Origin: a virus
Direction: 5' to 3' (one strand)
Virus record (IMG/VR): IMGVR_UViG_3300038678_000291
Location: 1 to 64,000 of that record
Length of the DNA: 64,000 nt
Below are positions 6,137 through 56,661 of the stretch, in pieces (within the stretch, counting starts at the first letter, position 1; each line of letters opens with the position of its first letter). A model generated the notes under the pieces. The model saw nothing but the letters and a program-made list of their open reading frames with translations, made no database searches and was not told the DNA's origin. The translations under genes were made by a program, and so were the position numbers.

Positions 6137-6137
6137 C

Positions 6138-8762: not shown

Positions 8763-9137
8763 TCATAATATCTCCACCACCTTAAACCTAATCACCCACA
8801 TGCTACTTCCGTCATTTTGCCAGTCCCTGAATCCGGCCAGGCTCACATCATACGGCATTGATTTGGGCAGCAAGTGCCGATTCTCATTGAGATACCCAAA
8901 TCCCTCTGCCCAGTAATCCGAATTGGGCATCTCAATCATTGGTTCGTATGTGGGATCACAGGTTAACTGAATAATTGCTACCTGCTTACCCCCGAACCGG
9001 GGAGAGCGGTCGTATGCTTTTATCATGTCACCTTTTTTGAACCGGCGAGCGTAATCATCGTTCCATGCTCGGCGGGTACATGTTTTCCGATTAGCAAGCA
9101 AGGCCGGTACTGTATAAGCAAATGATATGATTTTCAT
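8763..9137 (-). CDS. ASCH/PUA-like domain protein
   Basis: IISF......L...KT.TRR, AEGF and W.I.F motifs. Confidence 0.65.
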   Translation of the reverse strand: MKIISFAYTVPALLANRKTCTRRAWNDDYARRFKKGDMIKAYDRSPRFGGKQVAIIQLTCDPTYEPMIEMPNSDYWAEGFGYLNENRHLLPKSMPYDVSLAGFRDWQNDGSSMWVIRFKVVEIL

Positions 9138-10549
9138 GTAGCAGGTTCTCCCGTCTCTGGTTTATCCAGGAATTTTATATATTCAGGAGCATATACATCT
9201 ACCATCCCGTCCTCATGTTCAACAGTTCCCAGACATCCAGCATCGTCACCATCTTGCCATTGAAACCAGCCGTGAAATAATCCTGTTTTGATTTCATATG
9301 ACTCGGCTCTGTTTATAGGTCCCCCCTCACTATATTCTACTCTGCGCAACTCCATAAATCCTCCCCGGCTGAGTTCAACCGTCAAGTTCTACTTGACAGT
9401 TGCTCTTAGTTATTCACACCACCGCAATGCCACACATGCATTTATCATGGCCACCGTATCTCCCGCCTCCATAACATCCTTAGCGGCGTTTATACCGTTT
9501 TGTATCATTTTCGCACCGAATGATCCGGCAGGGAATTGGTTGTATTCCCTCACCAACTCCAAGCAACGGGAAATCTCCTGTTTCAATCCGTCTATTAGGT
9601 TCATGGCAAGCATCCACTGAAAGGGTGTAGACAGATTGCCCACTCCCTTGTTTGCCCCTGGCAGCAGGGGCGAACTTCCCCAGCCCGCCCCGTTCCCTTA
9701 AAGGTGCTGCCCATGTGTTCTGTGTTAATCTCTGTTCCTGTACTTTGCGTTTCGCATACTTTGGCGTTCGCTACTTTTTCGCCCCGTCCGCTTTAGCTTG
9801 GCTTTCGGTTTCCGTTGGGTGTCCTACTCGCCGTCGCTCCACACTGGGGCTACTTTTCGCTACTTACGGTTTCGCTACTTTGCGTTTCGGCTACTGAGAG
9901 ATTAACGGGAACAGTAATCCTTACATCTGCCACGATTTTCACCTCCTCTTCTGTTATTTTGAAATTGCCAACCTCAAAGCAAATATTAAAATCCTCATAG
10001 CCAAATTCAGCCATACCCTTGTTGATTGAGGTTGCCAACTCTTGATAAGCATTTAAGACTATATTTATTATAGGAGATTTGACTTCCATTTCATGCCTTT
10101 AATAGGCCCGAGGATAGTTCCCATATGCCCAAAGAAAGAGGCCATAGCCATGCCACATAAACCATGTCATTCCTTCCCGGAGCAGTTCCCGTAATATAAT
10201 TTGATTTCATTGGGTCATAATCTTGTACTATCCCCCTGTCATCATTTTTGTCTACCCTTATAACTCTATCACCTGACTCAAGATTCCTTTTCACTGTAAC
10301 CTCCCATGTTAATATCTTGGTTATATGGTGGGGGTGGGTAGATTTGAACTAAAATTTACTCACGGCTTGTATCATCTTCCCTAATGCCTCAACCTCTTTT
10401 CTGTGATTTTCATAAATCTTCCGTGCATGTAAATACAATTTTTCTGCCTCTTCCCTTTCACCGATTTCCTCTAAATATTTGCCGTGTCGATGAACCAAGC
10501 ATGATAGCAAACTGTCTACCCGAATAAAAAAATCTCTCATTTCCATCAT
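9134..10549 (-). CDS. Run of small hypothetical early genes (9134-9385, 9410-9643, 9850-10089, 10091-10294, 10349-10549)
   Basis: Tightly packed, co-oriented ORFs, several with a good RBS. Confidence 0.5.
9740..9895 (-). repeat. Cluster of about 7 AAGTAGCGAA-like direct repeats
   Basis: ttcgctactt at 9767, 9856 and 9871, variants at 9751 and 9886; tactttgcgtttcg identical at 9741 and 9876. Confidence 0.75.
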
Positions 10550-10578
10550 GACTTACCTCATAAAAGTCATGCTTTTTG

Positions 10579-10653
10579 TGGTGGAGACAGAAGGACTCGA
10601 ACCTTCGCACCTCTGCTTATGGGGCAGATGCTCTACCGCTGAGCTATGTCTCC
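10579..10653 (-). tRNA. tRNA with CAT anticodon (elongator Met or Ile2), encoded CCA, C at position 33
   Basis: GGAGACA/TGTCTCC acceptor, GCTC/GAGC D-arm, TCTGC-CCCATAA-GCAGA anticodon arm, GAAGG-TTCGAGT-CCTTC T-arm, ACCA end. Confidence 0.93.
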
Positions 10654-10659
10654 CGTATT

Positions 10660-10754
10660 ATTCCCTGCGTGGTAGCGAGACCAGGCCATCCATAGGCTAC
10701 ATGCTTAGTGTTCCTGCTCCCAGGGGTGCATCCCACCGCAGGGAATCTTGTCAA
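10660..10754 (-). ncRNA. Closed-stem element (copy 1) directly upstream of the tRNA
   Basis: ATTCCCTGCG/CGCAGGGAAT terminal inverted repeat; accgcagggaatcttgtcaa identical to 20124-20143. Confidence 0.55.
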
Positions 10755-10757
10755 GTC

Positions 10758-10964
10758 CTATTCATCAACACCAACGAGAAGCTCTTTCCACGAAACCTTC
10801 AATGCCCTTTTAATCGATCTGAGGGTTAAGAAGGTGGGGTTGAGCAGTCTACCCGTTTCTATTTTTGATAAATATCCCCTCTCCATCCCAGTCTTTCCGC
10901 CTATATCCCCCTGGCTAAGATTCTTGCTTCTCCGTAATTCACCGATCCTCTCGCCGATTTTCAT
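10758..10964 (-). CDS. XRE-family HTH regulator
   Basis: IGERI.ELR....LSQ...YLSKIETG...NPT. Confidence 0.9.
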   Translation of the reverse strand: MKIGERIGELRRSKNLSQGDIGGKTGMERGYLSKIETGRLLNPTFLTLRSIKRALKVSWKELLVGVDE

Positions 10965-11400
10965 GGTTTTCCTCCTTGGTTTGTAGTGAGGGTGGATGGT
11001 CTGTCCACGCCCTCGGATTAAGATTCCTATATGTGTCCATTATATCAGCGGCAACTGTCCAGCTCAATGGATATTCGGGACCGCGCCCTCGCGGGCAATG
11101 CAACCGTTTCAGGCTAAGCATCCCTGCATTACCGGCTCTCAAAACAATATCCGGAGTTTTGCGATTGATTGTACCGTAAATCCGGCAAATCAATGGCCTC
11201 TCCGTATAATTGGAACACCCGGATTCTGTGAGATATTCACAGGCTGGCATGTTGGTCTTGTCACCCACCCCCATCGCTTTACGCTCCCAAAAGGTCATGG
11301 GAACTATCCCGCAGCAATCATGGCAGCCTGCCTTGCACTGCATAGGGGGGATCGCCCGCCTTAGGCCCATGATAATCCTGCGCTGTTTTTTCGGGTTCAT
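10939..11400 (-). CDS. YkgJ-like CxxxCxxCC zinc/iron-chelating protein
   Basis: CKAGCHDCC...CEYL...GCS.Y..RPLICRIYG. Confidence 0.85.
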   Translation of the reverse strand: MNPKKQRRIIMGLRRAIPPMQCKAGCHDCCGIVPMTFWERKAMGVGDKTNMPACEYLTESGCSNYTERPLICRIYGTINRKTPDIVLRAGNAGMLSLKRLHCPRGRGPEYPLSWTVAADIMDTYRNLNPRAWTDHPPSLQTKEENHENRREDR

Positions 11401-11720
11401 TTAGATTCCGGGTGGGGGAAAAATAATGTTCCTGGCCTTGCATTAATTGCAGCCTGAATTGCTATGGTATCATCGGTAACCCCATCTCCATAAAGGGTGG
11501 TTGATTCAAGAAAAATATCCTCTACTTTTTTGCCCAACACACCGCAGATTCTCAACGCCAGGGAAACGCTGGGCACAATCCTTCTGTTAATGATGCGGTT
11601 CATATACTCCCTCTTTACACCAACCCTTCTTGCCAATTCTGCCTGGGTCATGTTCATAGAAAGCAATGCCTGGCCGATATTGTTTCCTGGTGGGATTCTC
11701 CTCGTGTCTCTTGTTCCCAT
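11397..11720 (-). CDS. XRE-family HTH regulator with an appended GDGVTDDT..IQAAI tail
   Basis: MTQAELARRVGV...PSVSLALRI...VEDIF HTH, followed by a tailspike-type motif. Confidence 0.85.
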   Translation of the reverse strand: MGTRDTRRIPPGNNIGQALLSMNMTQAELARRVGVKREYMNRIINRRIVPSVSLALRICGVLGKKVEDIFLESTTLYGDGVTDDTIAIQAAINARPGTLFFPHPESK

Positions 11721-11740
11721 GATCTACTCCTTTCTTTTTG

Positions 11741-11922
11741 TTGTATGGTGGCTGGCAGGATTCTCACCTACAGCTTTGTATCATTTTAACCCTTTAATGG
11801 CTATAACCCACTTTGCGTTACAGGGAGTGGTTATGCCTCCCATCTCATCTAAGAGTTTAGAAAGGCGCGAAGAAGGCCAGTCTCCGCAAGTTTTATAGAG
11901 CTAAACCGCAGCCACCACACAA
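11741..11922 (-). ncRNA. tRNA-mimic element A
   Basis: 14-bp terminal stem TTGTGTGGTGGCTG/CAGCCACCATACAA (G-U pair only on the minus strand) plus T-arm-like GTAGG-TGAGAAT-CCTGC. Confidence 0.65.
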
Positions 11923-11960
11923 TTCCATGTTACTCTATGGGCAGGTTCTCCAGCAGGCGG

Positions 11961-12539
11961 TCATGCTATTTTGGTCTCCTGCCCTTTGTATATTATTGGG
12001 CTGGAAACGCCGTTTTCTTGCTTCAGCTTTTCCATTTTTTTCACAAAATCCGTGACTGGTTTTAATCCTACTGGTTCAAGGGGCAGCTCCCCCTGTATCC
12101 TTTCCATCTTCACGGTGATTATCTTACCCGTATTATGAAATAGCCAGCTAGCAAGCTCTTCACTGGTGTTTACATCCTCCAGGGTAAGCTGGAGAATGGC
12201 GACCACTTGATCATCCAGCTTCTTAACGACAACCACGGCTTTAGATAATCGCCTTGCCCCCAAGGGTATCCAATTACCTTCGCCTTCGCCAACCAAGCGA
12301 ATATCGTATACTTCGTTGAGCAACGGAATATTGCTATACTCAACCTTCTTTTCCTCAGCAAATGCAGGGTCAAGAAACCTCTCCAGCCGTATACCCATGT
12401 CGGCCATCTCTGCCGGACAATCATCAATTCTGGTCGCAAAACTAAACTTAGCGGATTTACAAACCGTTCCGCCCTCAATTGTATACTTTCCTAATTCTAC
12501 CTGTAGTTCCATTTCAGCCCTCCTTTTGTTAATATTCAC
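11961..12539 (-). CDS. Hypothetical protein (likely start ATG 12512)
   Basis: Long ORF; AGGAGG RBS before MELQVEL. Confidence 0.6.
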   Translation of the reverse strand: MNINKRRAEMELQVELGKYTIEGGTVCKSAKFSFATRIDDCPAEMADMGIRLERFLDPAFAEEKKVEYSNIPLLNEVYDIRLVGEGEGNWIPLGARRLSKAVVVVKKLDDQVVAILQLTLEDVNTSEELASWLFHNTGKIITVKMERIQGELPLEPVGLKPVTDFVKKMEKLKQENGVSSPIIYKGQETKIA

Positions 12540-13378: not shown

Positions 13379-14083
13379 CTATTTTTTGGCATAAACATTG
13401 GTGGTGGTCATTTGGAAATAATCGCTTTTCTCCTTTTTCCAAAGCTCATACGAAAACGATCCATAGCGGGCTGTCCGCCACTGGGCAAGTCCAATGAACT
13501 GTCCATAGAGCAGCAATAGCCTCAATTGCTGTTCGCTGAGCAATCCCAATAATACGGTAATCTCAAGCTCCAATGAGCTTCCGGCCAGAATCTTATCTGA
13601 TCGGGCCACAAAAACCCGGGGGCCCTGCTTGGTTTGCCCGCGGAGGGGTCTTTCCAGGTTCCCGTCAGGCACCTTGATAAAATACCCCTCCCTGCTCTTG
13701 ACATGAAGCCGCCTTGGGCCTACCTGTACCAGGTTTGAGATATGGTGCCGGAGGTTGGTGATCCCTATCCCCTTGTTGGTTTTCAGGGTGTTACCTGCGT
13801 GCTTCAGGTACCCCCTTATCATATAATCATAGAAAAACAGCCCCTTATCGTCCTGGTGAAATCCTGTCCAACCCTTTTCCTCTTCGTTGAACTCCGACAA
13901 TGTATCCGTCTCATTATCCGTGACAGTTTGGGGTTTCTTGCTTTCTATGAACGCCTTGTAGACTTCCGGGTCCTTGGGGGCGGTTCCCAGGACATCCTCC
14001 AAGAAAGTCAATTTGGTGCCATAGACTGCACTGTCGAAAGTCAAGACCGCCGCTTCATCCTTCTTCTTTTTTTTCTCCGTCAT
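13379..14083 (-). CDS. Stand-alone Cas7/RAMP-like protein
   Basis: KLTFLEDVLGT first strand, FFYDYMIRGYLK (compare the Cas7 xxGxxIRGxLR helix), basic thumb ERPLRGQTKQGPR, C-terminal G-loop YGQFIGLAQWRTARYGSF; GGAGG RBS. Confidence 0.75.
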   Translation of the reverse strand: MTEKKKKKDEAAVLTFDSAVYGTKLTFLEDVLGTAPKDPEVYKAFIESKKPQTVTDNETDTLSEFNEEEKGWTGFHQDDKGLFFYDYMIRGYLKHAGNTLKTNKGIGITNLRHHISNLVQVGPRRLHVKSREGYFIKVPDGNLERPLRGQTKQGPRVFVARSDKILAGSSLELEITVLLGLLSEQQLRLLLLYGQFIGLAQWRTARYGSFSYELWKKEKSDYFQMTTTNVYAKK

Positions 14084-29968: not shown

Positions 29969-30709
29969 ATGAGCACCGGAATCCCATATTGTGATGAGAC
30001 AATAAATCCAATCCGAACACGTGACGGCGGATACCACTGCACCAAAGTGAGCACGGGGTGTACCCATTGTTTTGGGGAGGGGTTTAATAAGCGATTCGGT
30101 AATCATAAGCCTTATGACAACAGCCCTGCCGAATTCGTGATCAATCAAAAAGCCCTAGATAAACTTTTGAAATGGAAAAAACCACGCCAGGTATTTGTTC
30201 AAGATATGAGCGATTTACTCCATACAGGGATACCATTTTGGATGATTGATGACGTATTTTCTTTTTTTGTAAGATGGCAAAAACGACATACCTATTTAAT
30301 TTTGACAAAATATACACAAAGAATGTTTGAATATTTTAATAGCATTGAAACTAGGAACATTGAGTATCTTCAAAAAACCAGAGCATGGCTCGGCGTATCA
30401 GCAGAAAACCAAAAATGTTTTGACAAGCGGTGGTATTATTTAAAACAGATTCCGGCTGCCCAATACTGGGTGTCTTACGAACCCGCTCTCGGTCCCCTAA
30501 TTTTGCCCCCGGATTTCTTAAGATTGGGGAAAAGGGCGTGGGTAGTCTGTGGGGCTGAGACCGGCCCCGGTGCCCGGCCCATGGATTTGGCTTGGGCTAG
30601 GGATTTGAGAGACCAATGCAAGGCTGCTGGCGTGCCTTATTTTTTTAAATCTGCGGGGACAAGGAAGCCTATCCCCCCGGACTTGATGATTAGGGAATCA
30701 ATAGCTTGA
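29969..30709 (+). CDS. DUF5131 (phage Gp37/Gp68) family protein
   Basis: C.KVS.GC.HC, FV.DMSDL.H, LTK, WLGVS.ENQ, SYEPALG, WVV.G.ETG..ARPM, V.YFFK. Confidence 0.92.
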   Translation: MSTGIPYCDETINPIRTRDGGYHCTKVSTGCTHCFGEGFNKRFGNHKPYDNSPAEFVINQKALDKLLKWKKPRQVFVQDMSDLLHTGIPFWMIDDVFSFFVRWQKRHTYLILTKYTQRMFEYFNSIETRNIEYLQKTRAWLGVSAENQKCFDKRWYYLKQIPAAQYWVSYEPALGPLILPPDFLRLGKRAWVVCGAETGPGARPMDLAWARDLRDQCKAAGVPYFFKSAGTRKPIPPDLMIRESIA

Positions 30710-31339: not shown

Positions 31340-31774
31340 ATTCATACCTCAAAAATCACGGATCGTCTACCACCTTGTATGGGGTTGGGATTATAACCAC
31401 TACAGGCGAAGGCTGCTTTGTAAAATACAACGACAGGGAGATTTGGATAGACAACCATCATGAAATAGCCAAGGGCCGGGACTGGATTCGCATACCAACC
31501 TGGTTGGCAAAACGGAAAGGATTTCTATGAAAACTAGCGGCGGTCTTGTAGGTGGTTTGTTGAGGGATAACAATGCTTTGTAATTCGTGTTCCTATGGTG
31601 GGTTTAGTGCTATATCAAGACCACATCCCCAGGGGCACCTGGTTCAGCAGATAAAGAGATGGTGTGCCAAATCGAAGTATCCGATTGAACGGGCACCAAA
31701 AACATGTCAGGGATATAAATCAAATAAACAAAAAATATTCCCAAAATATTCCAATAACGAAAGGAGAAAAACCA

Positions 31775-32323
31775 ATGTATTTTATAGGTGTTGATCCAGG
31801 CCAGACCGGAGCAATTGCAGTGTTGAACGAGAGTGGACAATGTCAGTTTTTAAGTGATTGGCCGGGAGATGAGATTGGAGTAGCTCACTGTGTAAAAACC
31901 CAAACAATCGGCCCGCTTTCAGGTGCTCAGTTTATGGCAGCCATTGAGGATGTTCACGGGATGCCTAAAATGAGCGTTACGAGTATTTCCAAGTTTATGA
32001 TTAACTTCGGTATTTGGCGGTGTGCGTTTGCGATGGTAGATATACCCTGTTGGCTAGTAAAGCCCCGTCAATGGCAGAAAGGAGCTTTGAGAATAGAAGA
32101 CGGAAGTAAAATTAAAATAAACAGAAGGGGGGAATCAATTAGGGTAATAGATACCAAGATAGCCAGCCTGATGGGGGCCCGCCGTCAATGGCCAAAGGCT
32201 AACTTGCAGTTCAAAAAACATCATGGCCGGGCAGACGCTTTATGGATTGCGGAATGGTTAAGACGGGCACGGCAGGGAGAATCCCCCACGGAAGGCACTG
32301 GGAATATCATTTCTACGCACTAA
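31775..32323 (+). CDS. RuvC-like Holliday junction resolvase
   Basis: FIGVDPG.TGAIA, IEDV, P..W.K, RADAL.IA. Confidence 0.88.
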   Translation: MYFIGVDPGQTGAIAVLNESGQCQFLSDWPGDEIGVAHCVKTQTIGPLSGAQFMAAIEDVHGMPKMSVTSISKFMINFGIWRCAFAMVDIPCWLVKPRQWQKGALRIEDGSKIKINRRGESIRVIDTKIASLMGARRQWPKANLQFKKHHGRADALWIAEWLRRARQGESPTEGTGNIISTH

Positions 32324-32495
32324 GCGCTTACCAGGAGGGTAGTTTGGAGATTAGCGGGGTAAAGACATAGAGCAGTGGGTTGGGCTTTCTGAATGCGAAA
32401 ATGAGGCTGTGGTGAAGCTAGAGAGGTAAACCATGGTTTACCAAGGATGGTTGAAAAATGGACAATGAAATTAGAAAATTAAGGGACGGCAGAAA

Positions 32496-33101
32496 ATGAT
32501 CACCCATCTTTGCGTCCAAAATCCTGTTGCAGGTGAACTTAAAGGGGTTTGCGTTGTTTGTGGCCAACAAACCCTTACTGGATATAAATTACCTTTTTCG
32601 GATAATTTCACAGGATATTCCTATTTGTCTCATGGGGACTTAACCTGTCCCCGTTGTTATACCTTTTTCAAAACCCCTGAGTTTAGGCGAAAATCATGGA
32701 TAGCTTCTCAAGACGGAGTCCTATATCTGAAGCGCCTTGAATGCAGGCAGCATATTCTTAATCCCCCAACTCCACCGTTTTTTCTTTATATTACCAAAAC
32801 CGGACAAAGACAAGGGTGGTTATCTGCTTTGAAACTTATGAATTATAGTCAAGGCAGATTTTATATTTCAACGGATTGGGTGGGGCATTTTTTGGTTGAA
32901 AGGAGCGAAGCACTGATAATGGCTACTCAAATTGCATTTCTTAGGGAACGGGAAATTTCAAAAACTACTCTTTTAACTGGCAATCCTAGCATGAAACAAT
33001 ATAGGCTTGCCATAGAGGGTGGGTGGGAAGGAGAGTTTGGAAAAATTAGAAAATATGTTAAACAACCACTTTGGGAGGTGATGGTATATGTCTCTGAATG
33101 A
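32496..33101 (+). CDS. csf1: Csf1 (Cas8-like large subunit, type IV)
   Basis: CVVCG...NFT....CPRC Zn finger, L.PP.PPF; first gene of the operon. Confidence 0.72.
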   Translation: MITHLCVQNPVAGELKGVCVVCGQQTLTGYKLPFSDNFTGYSYLSHGDLTCPRCYTFFKTPEFRRKSWIASQDGVLYLKRLECRQHILNPPTPPFFLYITKTGQRQGWLSALKLMNYSQGRFYISTDWVGHFLVERSEALIMATQIAFLREREISKTTLLTGNPSMKQYRLAIEGGWEGEFGKIRKYVKQPLWEVMVYVSE

Positions 33102-33435
33102 GGCACAAGAAAAGGCCCTGGTTGAATTTCTGGCTATAGTTTATGGCCGCATTCCCTGGGGAAAAATGCGGACATCAAAAAACCCCCATGATATTTTCAA
33201 TCATCGGGTGCGGGCAGCTACCAGAAGGGCGACTCTTTATGGGTTTGCCTCAAAACTGTGTAATTATTTTGGGCTTCAAACATTACCCCTTGAGGCTCAA
33301 GCGTTGCTTGATTTGCTGAGGCCAGAGGAGCAGCGAATATTAAGCACCTTATCCTCAGAACATATTCCCTGGTGTGTTAGGGGGATAATCAGATCAAAAG
33401 AGATGAAACTCAAAAACAAGGAGGCCGGCAAATGA
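33088..33435 (+). CDS. Cas11-like small helical subunit
   Basis: 115-aa helical protein between csf1 and csf2. Confidence 0.6.
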   Translation: MSLNEAQEKALVEFLAIVYGRIPWGKMRTSKNPHDIFNHRVRAATRRATLYGFASKLCNYFGLQTLPLEAQALLDLLRPEEQRILSTLSSEHIPWCVRGIIRSKEMKLKNKEAGK

Positions 33436-34268
33436 TTGAGAAATATGATGGCTGGATATTAGCCAAAAGCACCATTCATCATGGCGGGAACGAGAAAACC
33501 GGCAGCACCCCCGTACTTAGAACAATCTATCTGTATGTTGAAGGCCAGGGGGAAATACCCTTCCCATATATCAACGGTAATGCTATTAGAGGTAAACTGC
33601 GAAGGCTGCTGATGCGGGAGTTTTTTCAGCTTATAGGATTAGAGCCGGAAAATCTCAAAACCAAACTATATCATATTTTTTTCACCGGGGGAGTATTAAC
33701 AAGTACCGAATCTTCCTATGCTACAGTGGACTTGGAATTAAGGAAAGAAATCCGTCGGTTGCTACCCCCGCTTGCTTTGCTTGGCGGTGCCATTGGAAAC
33801 CAGATGATACCGGGAAAGCTGAAGGTGGGCCACGCTTTTCCTGTTTGCCAGGAATATGCTCAATATCTTCCTGAAAGGCTAAAAGCAGATAAACGGGTTG
33901 GCATGTCGGTACGAAGCTTCACCGATGAGTCGTTCAATACCAGAAAAGATGATTTGCGGGCAGGTCGGGCAGAAGATGAACAGGCGACCCAAATGAAAAT
34001 AGAGTTTGAATGTTTCATTCCTGGCACAAAATTCTATCACTGGTGGGTGCTGGAGTGGCCCACAGAAATAGAAAAAGCCTGTTTCGGCAGATTGATTGAG
34101 GTCTTTCAATCATCTCCTTTTGTTGGGGGGAAGTTGTCTTCCGGCAACGGAGATGTGATGTTTGAGTATCAACCAAAAACACCTTCAGCACAACCGTATT
34201 TGGAGTTTGTGCTGAAACACAAAACGGACATCCTTCCACTTCTTCAGACCATTGAGGACAAGTTATGA
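33432..34268 (+). CDS. csf2: Csf2 (Cas7-family backbone, type IV)
   Basis: IHHG, P.INGNAIRG.LRR, FFTGG.L, P.ALLGG..GNQM..GKL, TRKDD, QM....E....GT, VGG..S.G.G. Confidence 0.9.
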   Translation: MIEKYDGWILAKSTIHHGGNEKTGSTPVLRTIYLYVEGQGEIPFPYINGNAIRGKLRRLLMREFFQLIGLEPENLKTKLYHIFFTGGVLTSTESSYATVDLELRKEIRRLLPPLALLGGAIGNQMIPGKLKVGHAFPVCQEYAQYLPERLKADKRVGMSVRSFTDESFNTRKDDLRAGRAEDEQATQMKIEFECFIPGTKFYHWWVLEWPTEIEKACFGRLIEVFQSSPFVGGKLSSGNGDVMFEYQPKTPSAQPYLEFVLKHKTDILPLLQTIEDKL

Positions 34269-35005
34269 TTGAGCAAGAAATGACCTATTTCCTTGATTCT
34301 TTCCTTTTGGGGACATCAAGAAGATATAGACCAATGAAATACGAGTCATTAAAAATCACCTTTTGGCTTTCGGCCCCCATATCTCTTACCCACCCCTGGA
34401 TGCACTTTGATGGGCTTATAGGACATCTCTTGACGATAGATGCTCTTGGGCAGGATTTTTATTTACTGCCCAGAAAATTCCCGCTTTCTCGTATGCTTCG
34501 GCAAGTAAAGATTCCACCGTTTCCCATCAAACATACCAGGGGAATGTATCACGCCTCGGCATCCATTTTTGATACCGGCAGGAAGTCTCTTGAAATTATG
34601 TATAAAAAATTTGAGGATCGGTGGGCAGGCGGCAGAAGAAAAGTATCTAAGGGAATGGGATATTTTCGGGACTATATGATCCAACACATCTATATTCCCA
34701 CAAAAACCGTAATATTCTATGTAATGGGAGACAGAAAAACTTTGGAGCAACTTTGTCACTTGGTAACAGGGTTAGGAGACAATACCCGCGTAGGGTGGGG
34801 AGCGGTGAGAAGACATGAGATAGAAGACATGCAACAAGATTGGAGTATTATAAAAAATGGGATTGCTATGCGCCCTATCCCCGAAAAATTGATTGAATAC
34901 ACTTCCTTAAAAGTTGCTGTGGCCTGGAAACCCCCATATTGGGCGCCAGAATGTGTTGGAATATGTGCACCACCTGGTGCAGAGGTGAAACTGAAAAATG
35001 GATAA
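34265..35005 (+). CDS. csf3: Csf3 (Cas5-family, type IV)
   Basis: FDGLI, G.F.DY, FY..GD...L..L....LG.....GWG.V, RPIP, PPYW. Confidence 0.85.
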   Translation: MIEQEMTYFLDSFLLGTSRRYRPMKYESLKITFWLSAPISLTHPWMHFDGLIGHLLTIDALGQDFYLLPRKFPLSRMLRQVKIPPFPIKHTRGMYHASASIFDTGRKSLEIMYKKFEDRWAGGRRKVSKGMGYFRDYMIQHIYIPTKTVIFYVMGDRKTLEQLCHLVTGLGDNTRVGWGAVRRHEIEDMQQDWSIIKNGIAMRPIPEKLIEYTSLKVAVAWKPPYWAPECVGICAPPGAEVKLKNG

Positions 35006-35690
35006 ACAGTGGAGGGAAACATTTTTGCTTCATGCCAGAAGCGAAGAATATATCCAAAAAATTCAGGAAGCAGAGTACAATATTTTAACTACCCTTCTGC
35101 GATATAAAAAACCCTATGTGGCCTTTTCTGGGGGTAAGGATTCAACCTGTATGTTACATTTAGTATTGCAGCAAGCTTTAAATACGATGATTTTACATTG
35201 GGATTATGGCAGATTTTATATTCCTTACTACCTACACAACGAATTAATAGAAAACGCACGCAGATGTGGAGCAAAAAATCTTCGGATAGAAACATCTAGT
35301 CTATATGAAAAACTTGGCCGAAAGGCAATTAATGTATTGGGTAAAGAAATGATGGAAAAACTTATCCCTCAACTGATAAAAGAAGGCTACGATGTTGTTT
35401 TTGTTGGCTTACGAATACAAGAATCAGTTAAACGGAAACTAAGAATCAAAGCAGGGAGAAGCCTTACAAATATTTTTGAAGTATGGCCATTAAAAAACTG
35501 GTCATGGCTTGATGTATGGGCATATATCATCTCCAGTAAAATTCCTTATCTTTCTTATTATGATAAATATGCTCCTGTTGTGGGATGGGATAAAGCTAGG
35601 TTCACTACTTTGTTTGATCCCGAATTTGATAAATTTGGCTGTTCTAATGTTGATGGAATATTGTCTTGGAAATATAGGAATTTAATATGA
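34998..35690 (+). CDS. CysH/PAPS-reductase-like protein (type IV-B accessory)
   Basis: AFSGGKDS PP-loop, GLR..ES..R, PL..WS..DVWAYI....IPY...Y. Confidence 0.9.
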   Translation: MDKQWRETFLLHARSEEYIQKIQEAEYNILTTLLRYKKPYVAFSGGKDSTCMLHLVLQQALNTMILHWDYGRFYIPYYLHNELIENARRCGAKNLRIETSSLYEKLGRKAINVLGKEMMEKLIPQLIKEGYDVVFVGLRIQESVKRKLRIKAGRSLTNIFEVWPLKNWSWLDVWAYIISSKIPYLSYYDKYAPVVGWDKARFTTLFDPEFDKFGCSNVDGILSWKYRNLI

Positions 35691-36568: not shown

Positions 36569-37063
36569 ATGCGCAAAATTAATAAGCTGATTTTACATTG
36601 TTCAGATTCCTCCTGGGGTAATGCTTTGGTAATTAATCAATGGCATTTAGCACGAGGGTGGCATGGCAGAGAATCTAAGATTTCTTGTGGTTATCATTTT
36701 ATAGTTCAAAACGGATATCCTTATTATTTGGAACACCAGAGTATTCTTGATGGTATGATAGAATCGGGCCGCCCAGTGAAAGAAATTGGGGCGCATGTTA
36801 GAGGGCACAATCAGAACAGTATTGGTATTTGTCTTATTGGCAAGCCAGGACATTTTACACATAAACAACTAGGACATTCTTTGCGAGCATTGTTTTTATC
36901 TCTTCTGCAAGAATTTAATTTATCTACAGCAGATATTTATGGACACTATGAGTTTGATTCAAAAAAAACCTGCCCAGGGTTGAACATGGATGCTTTTCGG
37001 TTATACATCGAGAACGGCGGAGAGGCTTTTTTGAGAGAGACGGTGGAGCTTACACCGATGTAA
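36569..37063 (+). CDS. Endolysin, T7-lysozyme-like N-acetylmuramoyl-L-alanine amidase
   Basis: ILHCS, WH..RGW, GYHF, GAH.RG.N..SIGICLIG, GH......K.CPG. Confidence 0.93.
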   Translation: MRKINKLILHCSDSSWGNALVINQWHLARGWHGRESKISCGYHFIVQNGYPYYLEHQSILDGMIESGRPVKEIGAHVRGHNQNSIGICLIGKPGHFTHKQLGHSLRALFLSLLQEFNLSTADIYGHYEFDSKKTCPGLNMDAFRLYIENGGEAFLRETVELTPM

Positions 37064-37175: not shown

Positions 37176-38099
37176 ATGATTAAAACACTTGCTATTCACG
37201 GAGGCGGAATTAGGGGGATTATTCCAGCGGTAATATTAAATTGGATGGAAAAACATGTCGGTAAGCCAATTGCGGAAATATTTGATTTAGTCGCAGGCAC
37301 TTCCACCGGTGGGATTCTAGGGGCAGCCTTAAGTATTGGGTTCACCGCCGAAGATATAATTGGGATGTACGAATATGAAGGAGAGCAAATTTTCCCTCAA
37401 TCTGTATGGCGAAGTTTACACACCATTGGCGGTGCCGCCGAGGAGAAATACCCGTCGGGAGGAATTGAGGCAGTGCTACAAAAGTATTTTGGTACCCACA
37501 AACTATCTGATGCCGAAACAAATCTTATCATTCCCACCTATGACATAGAGCGCAGACGCCCAATTTTTTTCAAATCGTATAAAGAAAAATTTAAGACTAT
37601 TTTGATGTGGCAAGTGGCTCGGGCTACCTCCGCAGCCCCCACATTTTTTGAACCGTACAAATGGTATATGCCCAACGGCGATTATTTTTCTCTTATAGAC
37701 GGGGGGATGTTTGCTAACAACCCGGCCATGTGCGCCTATGTAGAGGCATTGGCTGAGTTTGATGCAACTGATTATATGGTAGTCTCATTGGGTACTGGGT
37801 CAGCAACACAACCAATTCTACATGAAGACGCACAGGGTTGGGGGTTGGTTGGGTGGGCACCGCATATTCTTGATATTAACTTTGATGGCCAATCAGACAC
37901 AGCAGACTATCAACTTAATCGGCTTTTGCCATTGAATAGATTCTATAATTTTCAGCCCATGTTAGTTGGCGTAAATGAGGCAATGGATGATGCCAGCCCT
38001 GAGAACATCCGGGCATTGAAGCTGCTGGCCGAAAACTATATTGAAGACAATAAGTCAATGCTGGAGGCTCTTTGCGATATTCTGGCATATCAAGTTTAG
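37176..38099 (+). CDS. Patatin-like phospholipase
   Basis: GGGIRG, GTSTG, ATSAAPTFF, DGG..ANNP, SLGTG. Confidence 0.95.
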   Translation: MIKTLAIHGGGIRGIIPAVILNWMEKHVGKPIAEIFDLVAGTSTGGILGAALSIGFTAEDIIGMYEYEGEQIFPQSVWRSLHTIGGAAEEKYPSGGIEAVLQKYFGTHKLSDAETNLIIPTYDIERRRPIFFKSYKEKFKTILMWQVARATSAAPTFFEPYKWYMPNGDYFSLIDGGMFANNPAMCAYVEALAEFDATDYMVVSLGTGSATQPILHEDAQGWGLVGWAPHILDINFDGQSDTADYQLNRLLPLNRFYNFQPMLVGVNEAMDDASPENIRALKLLAENYIEDNKSMLEALCDILAYQV

Positions 38100-44380: not shown

Positions 44381-46165
44381 GTGGCTAAAAACAAATCAAC
44401 AACACCGCAAATCGCCGCAGAGACGCAACCCGACAATCCCGCTATGCGGGAATTAATATTTGAATATGTTACAAATATTGACAATGTTCACCTTAAAACC
44501 GAGGCGATTGCTAAAGCGGTTGGTCTCCAGGACAGACAAACCAGGGAGTATCTCACCACTGAATTCTGGGAGGCCGTCCGGGATGAGCGGCGCAAAAGAT
44601 ATGCTAAGCACTCGGTTTTCGTAGATGAGGGGTTGGTTAGGAGTGCGGTTAAAGGCAATCCGGCTGCCGCCAAACTGTTTTATGAGAAATATGAAAAATG
44701 GAGCAGTGACAAGGAAGAGACCGACCCTCAGTCTGCTGGTTGGGTTGAGCGAGCAAAAGAGCAAGCACTCCATAATGTTACATATCATCGCAAAATACTT
44801 TACAATTCACCGTTGTACCCTCCAGAAATTAAAGCTATTCAGCTTGTTGAAAAGCATATTGATCAAAAATCTGGCAAAATCATTACCATACGCAGTGCCC
44901 GTCAGACCATGAAAAATGAGTGCTCGGCTATGATTGCAACCAGGGTGCTTGAACGATACAAAGACAAGGGAGGAACTTATATCCGTACCGCCCCTACATG
45001 GAAGCCGCAAATCATCAACTCTAAGATGCGCCTGGAGAGGTTTTTGATGGCTGACCCTTTAATCCGGGATAACTATCGCCGCCGTGAGGGATTTATTTTT
45101 CAGTGCGGGCTTGCTCAAATACATTTTTTGTCTACTGATACCTCGGCCAAGGTGGTAGGAGATACTGCCGACATCTGCTTAGACATTGACGAGGCGCACA
45201 AAGTAGACAAGGGCAAATTTGAGGAGGACTTTAGCCCCATGACGGCCTCCAGCAACGCTCCGGTGGTAATGTGGGGTGTTGCGGCGGATAAACAGGATTT
45301 GCTATATGAGTACCTACAATTCAACCTGGAGCATAATCCCGGTTGCGTCCTCCAGTATCCGGCGAGCATCTGGTGTGAGCTGCTACCACAATATGCTAAG
45401 CATTATGAGGAGCGAGTGGCTAAGCTAGGGGCCGACCACCCGGTAATCCTAACTCAATACGACTTGATAGACGTGGACGCCATTGGGGGATATTTTACCA
45501 AGGCCCAGCAGACCAGCCTGCTCACCGGCGACCATGAGCAGTATTCAGCACCTAAAGACGGTAGAAGCTATGTTGTCACCATAGATATTGGTGGAGAGGC
45601 AGAGGAGGAGGAATCTGACCCACTGGTGAAGGCCGAGGGAGCCAGGGACAGCACGGTGGCGCTTGTGTTTGAGGTTGACCACAAGGACGAGGTAAACGGT
45701 TACCCTATGTGTCGGCTGGTGGATATACACTGGTGGACTGGTAAGAGCCTGGGGGACGAGCCGAGCGGACTCCCCGGTCAGCAGACCATATTGCTGAAAC
45801 TACTCAGGGCATGGCAACCACATTATGTGGTAGTTGATGCGCGGGGGGTAGGGGAGCAGATTGCGAATTACCTTGACACTAACTGGGGCGTGGAAGCCTA
45901 TAAGGCTTCGGCCCTTTCGGTAAGCGATGACTGTTATGGTTTGAAAGCCATGGTGAATAATGATAGAGTTAAGGTGTTCAGAGATGATCAGTCGCCGGAA
46001 TATGCCGAACTGGCGAGACAGATTAAGCATACCAGCTATGAGATAAGGCAACATGACCGAATGAGGATAATCAAGCCCCACGGCAAGGGGCACATTGATA
46101 TGGTGAAGGCCATGACTTATTTGTATCAGGCTGCCTTGACAGGCGGTGCGCCGGAGATATATTGA
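44381..46165 (+). CDS. Terminase large subunit with a fused N-terminal small-subunit-like HTH domain
   Basis: L...A..GN.AAAKLF N-terminal domain; ARQTMKNE P-loop, LDIDEAH Walker B, IDIGGE, VVVDARGVG and HIDMV nuclease motifs. Confidence 0.85.
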   Translation: MAKNKSTTPQIAAETQPDNPAMRELIFEYVTNIDNVHLKTEAIAKAVGLQDRQTREYLTTEFWEAVRDERRKRYAKHSVFVDEGLVRSAVKGNPAAAKLFYEKYEKWSSDKEETDPQSAGWVERAKEQALHNVTYHRKILYNSPLYPPEIKAIQLVEKHIDQKSGKIITIRSARQTMKNECSAMIATRVLERYKDKGGTYIRTAPTWKPQIINSKMRLERFLMADPLIRDNYRRREGFIFQCGLAQIHFLSTDTSAKVVGDTADICLDIDEAHKVDKGKFEEDFSPMTASSNAPVVMWGVAADKQDLLYEYLQFNLEHNPGCVLQYPASIWCELLPQYAKHYEERVAKLGADHPVILTQYDLIDVDAIGGYFTKAQQTSLLTGDHEQYSAPKDGRSYVVTIDIGGEAEEEESDPLVKAEGARDSTVALVFEVDHKDEVNGYPMCRLVDIHWWTGKSLGDEPSGLPGQQTILLKLLRAWQPHYVVVDARGVGEQIANYLDTNWGVEAYKASALSVSDDCYGLKAMVNNDRVKVFRDDQSPEYAELARQIKHTSYEIRQHDRMRIIKPHGKGHIDMVKAMTYLYQAALTGGAPEIY

Positions 46166-47851: not shown

Positions 47852-47930
47852 GACCTTGTCATGCTGAGGGCTGGATATGGAAGGCAACCACACACTGTGG
47901 CAACCCCTTCCCGTCCAGCCCTTTTTCTTT
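47852..47930 (+). promoter_or_regulatory. Terminator-like leader hairpin upstream of portal
   Basis: AGGGCTGGA..GGAAGG / CCTTCC..TCCAGCCCT followed by a T run. Confidence 0.6.
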
Positions 47931-47941
47931 GTAGGGTTTTA

Positions 47942-50107
47942 ATGTTAACCAATCTAATCCAAAACATAGGCCACGGCTTCGGGAACGCCCGTGGCGCATT
48001 CTTGGCTGGCTATCAGAAGGCAAGTGGTGGCTGGAGAGACCTGGAAGCTATCTGGTCAAGTGTCTTGGGTGAATCTACCACTAACAGGAAAAGAACCGCC
48101 GCCCTTCAACTCAGGGAATTTCAGTCCTGGATTTACATTATCCTGACTACCATTTATGGGCGCACATCTACAGTCCCTTGGAACCTCAAGGTACAGCGGC
48201 CAGACAATACGCTAGAAAACTTGAATAACCAGCATGACCACCCGCTCCACAAGCTTCTCACCAAACCAAATCCGTTTATGACAGGTACCTTCTTTCAGCA
48301 AATTATTCAGACACAACTTGACCTTACCGGCATGGCCATGATCTGGAAAATTAGGAACGGCTTGCGCCGCCCCGCCGAACTATGGCCACTTAATATTTCC
48401 GAGTTTATGGATTTTATTCCCGGCACCACCACTAAAGATTTTATCAAAGGCTATCGCTTTACCAATATGGAGTTTCCTGTTGAAGATATTATTTATCTCT
48501 ATTATCCTAATCCTAACCCCACCTTTTTCTCCACACTTGCATCCCAACAGACAACCAATTTGTTTGCCAGCCTTGCGGGGATGTCGCCTATTCAGGCTAT
48601 GGCCCGGACAGTAGATATTGAGAAATATATTGAGGTTTATGAGCGGGATTTCTTTGAAAACTCCGCCAGGCCCGATGTAATCCTGACAATGAACGAGAAA
48701 AAGAATCTTGGCGAACCAGAGAGGGAAAGGATATTAACAAAATGGAAGCAAAAACACCAAGGCCCAAGGAAATTTTGGGAGCCGACGATTCTGAAGGATA
48801 TGACCGCAGAGATTCTCAAAACCAATAACAAGGATTTCCAACTTGCCAAAACAGCTAACTGGACCAAAGACATGTTGTTTGCTACCTACAGTGTACCGGA
48901 GGGGAAGGCGGGGCTGGTCAAGGATATAAACAGAGCCAATCAGATCGGGGTAGATATAACCTTCAACGAGGAATGTATTCAGCCTCGGCTAAATTTATGG
49001 GATGAGACATTCACCAACCAGCTTGCCCATGAATTTGACGAGAAGCTGGTAATCCAGCACGATAACCCGGTACCATCAGACAAGGAATTTATCCTCAAGC
49101 GGCAGGAGTTTGAGGTTAAGAATTATATTAAGTCTATCAATCAAATTCGTGATGAGTCGGGCTTGGATAATGTTGATTGGGGGGATAAGCCCTGGATGCC
49201 GCTTAACCTAGTACAGGCTGGTAGTAGCCCTGTAGGTGAAGGTGAACCGGGAAAGCTTTATACCGTCCCCGTGCAACTGGAAACCAAAAACTGGCTGGAC
49301 GATCCTGAGCGCAGGAAAGCATACTGGAAACGATTTGATGCGCGGGCAAAGAAACATGAGTTACTGTTTATCAAGGTAATGCGGAAGCTATTTGCCGATC
49401 AGCAAAGGGAGGTGCTGGCGAACTTAGCACGGCTTGCGCCACAGATAGAGTCGCAATTTGCTGGCTGGCATAAGGGTAAGGTGGCTCGGTATATCAAGAA
49501 AAATCCCCGCCTGGTGGCCGGAATATTATTTGACGAAAAGGAGCAGATTAAAGTATTTGAAAAGGCTGGTAAGCCGCTAATCAGCGATGCCTTTGAAGAT
49601 GCTGGCACCGAGATGTTTAGCGACCTGGATATTGAGTTTAGTTTTGATCTGCATAACGCCAGGGCGGATAAGTTTATTAAGGGCCGGGCTGGTAAATATG
49701 CAGGGCAGGTAGTAGGCACCACACACAAAACACTGAGAGAGACCCTTCTGGAAGGCTTCAGAGAGGGGGAGTCTGTCTCACAGCTTGCTAAGCGCATAAG
49801 GCATGAGTTTGACATAGCAGACCGCCACAGGGCGATTGTCATTGCCCGCACTGAGGTAATAGGCGCATCCAATGCTGGCAGTCTTGAGGGGATGAGGCAG
49901 TCGGGGGTGGTGAAAAAAAAGGAGTGGCTGGCTTCCCTGGATGATAGGGTACGGGATAGTCATGTTTCAATGGATGGGCAGGTAGTGGGGATTAACGAAC
50001 TATTCACATCTGGCGATGGTAATACGGCGCAACACCCCGGTGGGTTCGGGGTGGCAGAAGAGGATATTCAGTGCCGATGTACCACAGTGCCCGTGATTGA
50101 GGTGTAA
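47942..50107 (+). CDS. HK97-type portal fused to an SPP1 gp7/Mu gpF-like minor head domain
   Basis: HPL..LL.KPNP.MT, ELWPL, G.SPI, FFEN.A.P; C-terminal IARTE...KEW....D.RVR.SH..MDGQ...HP.....IQCRC. Confidence 0.93.
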   Translation: MLTNLIQNIGHGFGNARGAFLAGYQKASGGWRDLEAIWSSVLGESTTNRKRTAALQLREFQSWIYIILTTIYGRTSTVPWNLKVQRPDNTLENLNNQHDHPLHKLLTKPNPFMTGTFFQQIIQTQLDLTGMAMIWKIRNGLRRPAELWPLNISEFMDFIPGTTTKDFIKGYRFTNMEFPVEDIIYLYYPNPNPTFFSTLASQQTTNLFASLAGMSPIQAMARTVDIEKYIEVYERDFFENSARPDVILTMNEKKNLGEPERERILTKWKQKHQGPRKFWEPTILKDMTAEILKTNNKDFQLAKTANWTKDMLFATYSVPEGKAGLVKDINRANQIGVDITFNEECIQPRLNLWDETFTNQLAHEFDEKLVIQHDNPVPSDKEFILKRQEFEVKNYIKSINQIRDESGLDNVDWGDKPWMPLNLVQAGSSPVGEGEPGKLYTVPVQLETKNWLDDPERRKAYWKRFDARAKKHELLFIKVMRKLFADQQREVLANLARLAPQIESQFAGWHKGKVARYIKKNPRLVAGILFDEKEQIKVFEKAGKPLISDAFEDAGTEMFSDLDIEFSFDLHNARADKFIKGRAGKYAGQVVGTTHKTLRETLLEGFREGESVSQLAKRIRHEFDIADRHRAIVIARTEVIGASNAGSLEGMRQSGVVKKKEWLASLDDRVRDSHVSMDGQVVGINELFTSGDGNTAQHPGGFGVAEEDIQCRCTTVPVIEV

Positions 50108-55452: not shown

Positions 55453-56661
55453 ATGACAAAAGAAGACCTGTTGGGCTTCATCAAAGCCTCAACGGACGCC
55501 GCTGTGAAGGAAGCTCTAGCCATACAGCTTAAGTCTCTGTTGGAGGTTGAAGCAAAGGAACTTAAGGCCAGCGTTGGGGCTGGTTACCAGGCTGCGGAGA
55601 GATACAATTCGCAGTTTGTGCCCACTAAGGGCGGGGACCTGATTAATCCCCTAGCTGCAAAAAATTCCCTCCAGTACAATGAGTTCGGGAATTACTGGAT
55701 TAAGCTAGCCCCAGATGGGGAAATTGAGAATTGGGTTAAGTCGTTTGTGGCAACCATTAAGGATCAGACCGTATCATCTAATACCGGGAGTGGGTTCTTG
55801 GTGCCAGAAGAGTTCGAGGCTTCTGTCATTCAGTACCGAGAGCCAAATAATATTGTATGGCCCCGTGCCACCATTGTTCCAATGAACACGGACACCAAAA
55901 AACACCCAAAGTTGGCGCAGGTTAGCGTTGGGACGGTAAATCATTTTGGCGGAGTGGTGTTTAATTGGACTGAGGAAACCGGAACCAAAATCGAAACGGA
56001 ACCTAAATGGGAGCAGGTCGTGTTACAGGCTAAAGAACTTTCGGCCTATACCCAGATTAGCGACACACTGTTGGCTGATAGTCCTATCAACCTGATCAAC
56101 TTTATGACTGATCTCTTCCGGCGGGCCTGGATGTGGACTACCGATAAGGTTTATATTGATGGTGATGCTGCCGGTAAACCTCTGGGCGTGATTGAAGACC
56201 CGGCCATCATTACTGTAGCTCGTCAGACTGCCGGTGCAGTGGTGCTAACTGACATCAGCAACATGTATGAGCAGCACCCGGTTCACTTCATGAACGGGGC
56301 TGTGTGGTTCATGAGCAAGCAGATTGAGGCTCGGTTGCTCAATGAGCGGTCAACCACCAATGACCTGCTGTTGCGGAACATGCTGTCAGTTAAAGACGGC
56401 AGAATTTCAACCCTGAAGGGGCATCCCATTGCCCTGTCCGATAACAAGACCCCAACCCTGGGTACTAAGGGCGATGTAATCCTCGGCAACTGGAGGGAAG
56501 GTTACTACATCGGGCGCAGACAGGGCTTGAAGTTGAATCGTAGTGAGCATGTAGCCTTTCTGCAAAACATGCTTACCCTCCGGGCTACTGGCCGGGTGGC
56601 CGGTGTTCCGGCTCAGCCGAAGGCATTTGTAGTGTTGGATGTAGCTGAGGGTGGCAGCTAA
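55453..56661 (+). CDS. Major capsid protein (HK97 fold)
   Basis: GFLVPEEF, W..E...K.ET.P, IS..LL.DS, GD...KPLG, L.G.P, AFVVL. Confidence 0.95.
   Translation: MTKEDLLGFIKASTDAAVKEALAIQLKSLLEVEAKELKASVGAGYQAAERYNSQFVPTKGGDLINPLAAKNSLQYNEFGNYWIKLAPDGEIENWVKSFVATIKDQTVSSNTGSGFLVPEEFEASVIQYREPNNIVWPRATIVPMNTDTKKHPKLAQVSVGTVNHFGGVVFNWTEETGTKIETEPKWEQVVLQAKELSAYTQISDTLLADSPINLINFMTDLFRRAWMWTTDKVYIDGDAAGKPLGVIEDPAIITVARQTAGAVVLTDISNMYEQHPVHFMNGAVWFMSKQIEARLLNERSTTNDLLLRNMLSVKDGRISTLKGHPIALSDNKTPTLGTKGDVILGNWREGYYIGRRQGLKLNRSEHVAFLQNMLTLRATGRVAGVPAQPKAFVVLDVAEGGS

Follow-up and report, generated by a model that had tools for sequence, protein, structure and literature searches.

CRISPR-Cas loci of subtype IV-B that have no CRISPR array have already been described on plasmids and prophages (PMC7038947) and on archaeal viruses (PMC10848311; 10.1101/2023.08.02.551345), and work cited in PMC10848311 has placed them on lytic phages as well. 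Of the common CRISPR-Cas subtypes, IV-B is the one for which the function and the complete architecture of the complex were still being called unclear in 2026 (PMC13676074). In the IV-B Csf complex, Csf2 and Cas11 form a filament on heterogeneous non-CRISPR RNA of about 55-60 nucleotides (nt) in which CRISPR RNAs (crRNAs) are not enriched, and IV-B loci co-occur negatively with other CRISPR systems (PMC7937560). Here we describe five overlapping genes, csf1-cas11-csf2-csf3-cysH-like, at positions 32496-35690 of a 64,000-nt window, which is the first 64 kb of the 83,017-bp virus record IMGVR_UViG_3300038678_000291. We regard it as very nearly certain that they are an intact canonical IV-B cassette, in the identity of the genes as well as in their architecture. 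The best overall explanation of the locus, to which we give a probability of about three in four, is that it is a self-contained IV-B accessory module on a tailed phage of a bacterial host. The cassette is a textbook example of its subtype and brings nothing new of its own; it belongs to a branch of IV-B that is abundant on viral contigs and whose five genes travel together, as a strict unit, into the junction between resolvase and packaging genes in unrelated tailed phages.

The five open reading frames (ORFs) of the cassette are co-oriented on the + strand, and successive stops and starts overlap by 14, 4, 4 and 8 nt, which suggests translational coupling. Four of the encoded proteins match the PADLOC type IV models for Csf1, Cas11, Csf2 and Csf3, and the fifth matches the Pfam PAPS_reduct family (table 1), so that the gene set and its exact coordinates are as an earlier note on this DNA had proposed. 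Csf1 has a zinc ribbon made of C19, C22, C51 and C54, and these four cysteines are invariant in 28 aligned relatives; no HD domain, other Pfam match or Cas10 match was found in it with the Pfam and PADLOC models. A sequence search of solved chains with Cas11 gave no meaningful match; in relatives cas11 is found at the same position of the cassette. The CysH-like protein has, in addition to its PAPS_reduct match, weaker PP-loop, QueC, DndC and BrxP matches. The locus has the components by which IV-B is recognized, namely Csf2, a small zinc-ribbon Csf1, Cas11 and Csf3 and an adjacent cysH-like gene; it has no array, Cas6, helicase (DinG/RecD) or adaptation genes, and it is carried by a mobile element. 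When the Csf2 profile was compared with solved chains, the Cas7c protein of subtype IV-C (11fs_C, E 1.3e-23) was a slightly better match than the Csf2 protein of IV-B (7jhy_e, E 3.8e-18), but subtypes are assigned by architecture, which in this case is that of IV-B, so the cassette is called IV-B. The typing E-values, together with a gene order that is kept in 44 of 65 related loci, rule out chance, and there is no evidence against the identity of the cassette.

The IV-B locus on a plasmid of Mycobacterium sp. JS623 (PDB 7JHY; PMC7937560) has the same five components as the locus described here, is likewise carried by a mobile element, and also has neither array nor Cas6. Its Csf2, however, is only about 28% identical to the one here, its carrier is a megaplasmid rather than a tailed phage, and its putative catalytic residue Asp42 aligns with Thr26 of the window protein, although the alignment of this loop is uncertain. 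Two viruses, Fuxivirus of Bathyarchaeia (PMC10848311) and the Methanoperedens virus Mp_virus_41kb (10.1101/2023.08.02.551345), carry the complete five-gene module with no adaptation genes, as does our phage; Mp_virus_41kb is also without an array, whereas Fuxivirus has a two-repeat mini-array that has no counterpart here. Both of these are archaeal viruses, while the peptidoglycan amidase encoded in the window indicates that the host in our case is probably bacterial. The closest annotated Csf2 (40.6% identity) is that of the Thermococcus nautili plasmid THER333_p (NZ_OX281346.1), which has the same five-gene layout ending in a gene of the PAPS (3'-phosphoadenosine 5'-phosphosulfate) reductase family but is an archaeal plasmid, unlike the phage here. 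The gene in the Csf3 (Cas5) position of that plasmid (L150 5845-6588) is labelled 'Cas6' by PGAP/RefSeq; this is probably a mislabel, and one that could mislead array-less calls.

Two other type IV subtypes are close enough to be considered. Subtype IV-C (Cas7c, PDB 11fs; PMC13676074) has Cas11, Csf2 and Csf3, is often without an array, and provides the best solved-chain match mentioned above; its large subunit, however, is a Cas10-like HD nuclease, whereas the 201-amino-acid zinc-ribbon subunit encoded here has no HD match and types as Csf1, and IV-C was rejected for this reason. Subtype IV-A (Csf1-3, Csf5/Cas6, DinG and an array) shares with our locus a homologous Csf1/Csf2/Csf3 core, carriage by mobile elements and the lack of a nuclease. 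It was rejected because DinG, Csf5/Cas6 and an array are all absent from the genome; Cas11 and the cysH-like gene, on the other hand, are present here.

The genome that carries the cassette encodes a portal, a major head protein and a large terminase (table 1), and the window further contains RecT/RecE recombination genes and an amidase endolysin; it is therefore that of a tailed phage, and the earlier statement that the cassette rides on a mobile element is correct. The cassette sits in a + strand block that it shares with the lysis and packaging genes, between a resolvase gene and the endolysin gene, as had also been said. Its relatives are numerous. In a large protein collection 281 proteins are related to Csf2 at E<=1e-10, and the labels of their metagenome-assembled genomes (MAGs) range from Bacillota and Ignavibacteria to Aenigmatarchaeota and Promethearchaeota, a taxonomic spread typical of mobile DNA. 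A profile-guided locus scan gave 49 IMG/VR loci and 15 loci in GTDB genomes. All five genes are in the same order in the 44 loci counted above, most of the others being cut by contig ends, and the loci with conserved order show 25-75% identity and lie mostly on viral contigs. From the kept order and the invariant residues of the zinc ribbon and of the PP-loop (below) we conclude that purifying selection acts on the cassette and that its genes move together. When all ORFs lying up to 6 kb from the cassette were clustered across the 65 loci, no sixth gene proved to be conserved. What recurs beside the cassette are ordinary phage genes: RusA resolvases (12 loci) and Hjc/VRR-NUC-like resolvases (8 loci), which are not homologous to each other, ParB-like genes (16 loci), a small late-region protein, and terminase and portal genes of differing families. 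None of the unnamed clusters that flank the relatives is present in this genome. The five genes thus arrive together in an accessory hotspot between the recombination and packaging modules of unrelated tailed phages, and the site of the cassette is usually between a Holliday-junction resolvase and the packaging genes.

Neither in the window nor across all 83,017 bp of the genome did Tandem Repeats Finder, a repeat finder or an exact-word chain search reveal a CRISPR array. A tolerant genome-wide search for a mini-array (two copies of a 24-36-nt repeat at a spacing of 45-110 nt) was also negative; its sole match, considered as a possible mini-array like that of Fuxivirus, is a coding repeat and was rejected. 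The Pfam models for Cas6 and Cas1 have no match in the genome, the RAMP model (PF03787) finds Csf2 only, and PADLOC detects no other Cas family among the remaining 122 gene-like ORFs, in which it matches only helix-turn-helix (HTH)-type regulator models. The lack of an array, cas6 and adaptation genes, which the earlier note had reported for the window, therefore extends to the full 83 kb, with no cognate array or cas6 elsewhere in it, and any RNA held by a Csf filament of this phage would not be a phage-encoded crRNA. The relatives are much the same in this respect, as an array is absent from 63 of 64 related loci. A real array stands in just one of them, a rare IV-B relative on a 5.5-kb MAG contig (L063 4044-4296), where a 36-nt repeat with self-complementary ends occurs four times some 820 nt past the cysH gene. 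The "many structured RNAs" that had been attributed to this phage find no support around the cassette: Rfam finds one tRNA in the window and nothing else, and neither the leader nor the trailer of the cassette is more stably folded than shuffled sequences (z +1.16 and +0.30, respectively). Permissive Rfam searches of the cassette flanks gave nothing real, the leader having no match, and on these two grounds a structured RNA linked to the cassette was rejected for the flanks.

The fifth protein was modelled with a mean predicted local distance difference test (pLDDT) score of 90.4. The model matches CysH (6vpu), the PAPS domain of flavin adenine dinucleotide (FAD) synthase, adenosine 5'-phosphosulfate (APS) reductase, CysD, TtuA and LarE, with a Foldseek probability of 1.0 for CysH, CysD, TtuA and LarE, and the predicted fold places the protein in the PP-loop alpha-hydrolase / PP-loop ATP pyrophosphatase superfamily. 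With CysH, DndC, CysD, TtuA and LarE it has in common the fold and the ATP-binding PP-loop, and this loop (S44-G-G-K-D-S49) is invariant among the aligned cassette CysH-like proteins. However, there is no invariant or nearly invariant cysteine in 28 to 44 aligned CysH-like proteins, and Cys215 of the window protein is not conserved. In this it differs from the CysH/TtuA/DndC group, and thiosulfonate, Fe-S or persulfide sulfur transfer is excluded; it is also far shorter than the PADLOC DndC models (about 470-480 positions). A true PAPS reductase, with its conserved C-terminal catalytic cysteine, was therefore rejected, and the protein cannot be a DndC/TtuA-type sulfur transferase either. Since the PP-loop is kept and no cysteine is conserved, the possible chemistry is narrowed to adenylation-type reactions, the likeliest of which is ATP alpha-beta cleavage with adenylation of a substrate. 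CasCysH has previously been reported to be without a catalytic cysteine, and an ATP alpha-hydrolase or AMPylase function has been suggested for it (PMC8175902, PMC13676074). Genes for 7-deazaguanine (Dpd/QueC) or RNA-methyltransferase functions have no PADLOC match among the other 122 ORFs, and none lies between the genes of the cassette.

By analogy with the solved Mycobacterium IV-B complex, Csf2 and Cas11 of the phage would polymerise into a Csm-like double filament on RNA of a fixed length, and Csf3 and the zinc-ribbon Csf1 would cap it. Such a filament could capture guide RNAs, cellular or of the host, without much regard to their sequence, and the PP-loop enzyme might then act, by ATP-dependent adenylation, on what the complex holds or meets, with phage counter-defence or competition between mobile elements, and not adaptive immunity, as the outcome. 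We put forward this combination of low-specificity RNA capture and PP-loop enzyme action, in the service of counter-defence or mobile-element conflict, as a tentative proposal that we do not consider probable as it stands. Several points weigh against this mechanism. The RNA partner, the substrate of the CysH-like enzyme and its contact with the complex are all things that we infer; the solved complex may owe its heterogeneous RNA to heterologous expression (PMC8175902); and a machine of five genes is costly as a sponge (PMC7038947). In several relatives other genes intervene between csf3 and cysH, so tight coupling of the two is not universal. The NCBIfam Csf equivalog models TIGR03114, TIGR03115 and TIGR03116 give 30.3, 51.3 and 60.7 bits, respectively, where their curated cut-offs are 140, 130 and 140, because the window proteins are distant from the IV-A-type ('AFERR' loci) seed families; judging from their sequences, they are homologues outside these narrow families.

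The options that had been offered for what IV-B acts on (host crRNAs held in a sponge, the phage's own noncoding RNAs, or a substrate of the CysH-like enzyme) are standard published hypotheses (PMC7038947, PMC7937560, PMC8175902), and this copy of the cassette separates none of them. A more particular form of the proposal above is that the Csf filament seizes host guide RNAs or other small RNAs, and that the cysteine-free PP-loop enzyme adenylates either this RNA or a host factor bound to it, thereby disabling RNA-guided immunity. We think this unlikely, but if true it is directly testable, in a mostly viral clade of at least 49 IMG/VR loci and in the cultured Skermania phage SPI1 (below).

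It is also conceivable, though doubtful, that the complex takes over guides rather than inactivating them. It would then load mature crRNAs made by the host and bind matching competitor or host DNA or RNA in the manner of IV-A CRISPR interference (CRISPRi), the CysH-like enzyme acting at the bound site. Csf3/Cas5 ordinarily reads the crRNA handle, and arrays do stand near two IV-B loci, the four-repeat array past the cysH gene of the MAG-contig relative and the mini-array at the Bathyarchaeia virus locus (PMC10848311); moreover, IV-A is known to act by guided binding without cleavage (PMC12669027). Neither Cas6 nor an array is present in this genome, however, and nearly all of the relatives are array-less as well. 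In the solved IV-B complex co-expressed I-E crRNAs were not enriched, and the negative co-occurrence of IV-B with other CRISPR systems also speaks against borrowed guides (PMC7937560).

The position of the cassette raises another possibility, that its role is directed at DNA and tied to replication or packaging. The complex might coat phage nucleic acid, single-stranded or in R-loops, and the PP-loop enzyme might then mark DNA, an epigenetic or anti-restriction function like that of its DndC and BrxP relatives. Resolvases (the RusA and Hjc/VRR-NUC enzymes counted above, and a RuvC-like one here) stand on one side of the cassette and ParB-like, terminase and portal genes on the other, an S-adenosylmethionine (SAM)-methyltransferase-like ORF is found in or beside the cassette in 8 loci, and the CysH-like protein has its weak DndC and BrxP matches. 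But this site is a general accessory hotspot of tailed phages, which makes position alone weak evidence, no conserved cysteine is available for sulfur chemistry, and the solved complex binds RNA (PMC7937560). A motif for docking on the sliding clamp is absent from the window Csf1 and Cas11. On balance a DNA-directed role seems improbable.

We consider it rather unlikely, too, that the filament alone is a passive sponge that soaks up guide RNAs, with the CysH-like protein either unrelated to it or regulatory. The heterogeneous RNA binding of the solved complex and a published sponge proposal (PMC7937560, PMC7038947) are in accord with this idea, as is the residence of the cassette on a mobile element. 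The cysH-like gene, however, nearly always accompanies the cassette, with which it has diversified in step (PMC7038947); this linkage and the invariant PP-loop argue that an enzymatic activity is integral to the cassette, as it is in the RNA-capture proposal that we prefer.

The earlier note regarded the IV-B cassette as the second of two unrelated Cas7-family modules of this phage, the other being a lone gene at 13379-14083 on the - strand. The part of this claim that concerns the fold holds up. The model of the lone protein is confident (AlphaFold, 34-sequence alignment, pLDDT 83.7, predicted template modelling score (pTM) 0.80), and its top Foldseek matches are all Cas7 proteins: type VII Cas7 (E 3.6e-7), Csm3, Cmr4, Cas7-11 and IV-A Csf2. 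A second aligner agrees, as the VIA all-against-all comparison gave Z values of 11.3 for type VII Cas7, 11.0 for Cmr4, 10.7 for Csm3 and 9.3 for the IV-B Csf2 7jhy, and the top 37 rows of the VIA search are all Cas7/RAMP chains. Sequence profiles give no such match, as the protein has no hit in Pfam, PADLOC or PHROGs and is missed by the RAMP model; its assignment to the Cas7/RAMP backbone fold is thus a prediction at the level of fold only. Its family has at least 125 members, with 93 viral loci confirmed.

That these two Cas7 modules form a meaningful pair is contradicted by their distribution. The lone-gene family was found in 0 of 36 viral records with IV-B (0 of 7 at >=90% completeness), and IV-B Csf2 in 0 of 48 viral records with the lone gene (0 of 27 at >=90% completeness), while the positive controls of the co-occurrence models recovered their targets in both directions. 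A distance of 19 kb separates them in the window, where they are encoded on opposite strands and belong to different transcription blocks. An SbcC-like ATPase gene adjacent to the lone gene was considered as its conserved partner and rejected, as it is beside the lone gene in none of 80 other loci; no conserved neighbour gene of the family was found. The null co-occurrence, the distance, the opposite strands and the unconserved ATPase neighbour together indicate that the two modules are independent accessory genes. In favour of a functional connection, whether through a shared RNA partner or as one system, are the common Cas7 fold and the genome of Caldicoprobacter algeriensis, but such a connection is already largely refuted by the co-occurrence test and is in our view very improbable. 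The lone gene is real at the level of fold, yet statistically unlinked to IV-B. Caldicoprobacter algeriensis (NZ_JAHUQD010000006, L056) is the only other genome found with both modules; its homologue of the lone gene (7905-8507) precedes csf1 by about 480 bp in the same orientation, the cassette there extends over 8985-12253, and the pair probably lies within a prophage. Finally, that the IV-B cassette is an inert remnant of a CRISPR-Cas system decaying on the phage, as its lack of an array, nuclease and adaptation genes might suggest, is scarcely credible in view of five intact ORFs, invariant catalytic and structural residues and an order kept in dozens of loci at 25-75% identity.

Table 1. 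Positions of the cassette genes, their flanking genes and the virion and packaging genes in the window
Feature	Position	Strand	Evidence
Holliday-junction resolvase (RuvC-like), upstream of the cassette	31664-32323	+	phrog_1770 E 3e-22
Leader upstream of csf1, 172 nt	32324-32495	+	weak sigma-70-like site 32451-32479, 9/12 matches in promoter scan
csf1, type IV large subunit (Cas8-like), 201 amino acids	32496-33101	+	PADLOC Csf1_0_IV E 8e-31; NCBIfam TIGR03114 E 3e-7 (below cut-off)
cas11, type IV small subunit, 115 amino acids, 14-nt overlap with csf1	33088-33435	+	PADLOC Cas11_0_IV E 3e-34, 104/114 profile positions
csf2, Cas7 backbone subunit, 278 amino acids, ATGA overlap with cas11	33432-34268	+	PADLOC Csf2_0_IV E 6e-71; NCBIfam TIGR03115 E 1e-13
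csf3, Cas5-like subunit, 246 amino acids, 4-nt overlap with csf2	34265-35005	+	PADLOC Csf3_0_IV E 1e-51; NCBIfam TIGR03116 E 1.5e-16
cysH-like (CasCysH), PP-loop ATP pyrophosphatase-fold enzyme, 230 amino acids, 8-nt overlap with csf3	34998-35690	+	Pfam PAPS_reduct PF01507 E 8e-17, above cut-off
N-acetylmuramoyl-L-alanine amidase endolysin, downstream of the cassette	36569-37063	+	Pfam Amidase_2 E 2e-11; phrog_822 E 4e-29
Large terminase	44381-46165		Pfam/PHROGs
Portal	47861-50107		Pfam/PHROGs
Major head protein	55453-56661		Pfam/PHROGs

Among the relatives, Skermania phage SPI1 (KR011061.1; L151 2331-5964), an actinophage, is the only cultured phage with a Csf2 match. Its Orf40-44, all five of which are annotated as hypothetical, type as Csf1, Cas11, Csf2, Csf3 and PAPS_reduct, and in the literature library that was searched no paper connects Skermania phages with type IV CRISPR. 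The phage and S. piniformis are a cultured phage-host pair and thus a possible experimental system. The SAM-methyltransferase-like ORF mentioned above stands between csf3 and cysH in 4 of its 8 loci and otherwise just after the cassette; an example is the 215-amino-acid ORF at L001 8751-9395, which has weak N6_N4_Mtase and RsmD-like matches. No such linked methyltransferase is present in this genome, though it recurs in the relatives. In one subclade only (11 loci, L013, L017-L022 and L025 among them), the C-terminal tails of Cas11 have a Q[IM]T[IL]F motif similar to a sliding-clamp docking peptide; the docking motif is absent from all 59 Csf1 tails examined and from the window Cas11.

In the window itself, the sigma-70-like sites of the 172-nt leader are not in excess over those of shuffled sequences in the promoter scan. 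Directly past the endolysin gene is a gene for a patatin-like phospholipase (37176-38099, +) that matches PADLOC 'Effector; Phospholipase' models (E 7e-72) and may be either a lysis accessory lipase or a captured defence effector. On the other side of the resolvase gene is a gene for a DUF5131 protein (29969-30709, +; E 2e-57), for which PADLOC also gives two candidate-defence models, PDC-M41B and PDC-M30B, along with a weak match to 'radical SAM mobile pair protein A'. Genes are on the + strand from about 28 kb onward, and the recombination and early genes lie in a - strand block from 7 to 28 kb; the sign of the GC skew flips in line with these strand blocks. The one sequencing run found to contain the window DNA is a metagenome of marine sediment, perhaps the sample from which the phage came; no RNA run is listed. 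IMG/VR lists the record as linear, with a CheckV completeness of 79%. Its first 126 nt, however, are repeated exactly at 82869-82994 of the genome, 149 nt before the contig end, which suggests terminal redundancy or a circular assembly in spite of that listing. Coding repeats with a 69-nt (23-amino-acid) period occur in two adjacent + strand ORFs (5132-6863) and again at about 81441-81530 of the genome, and probably belong to a family of repeat-containing structural or fibre proteins.

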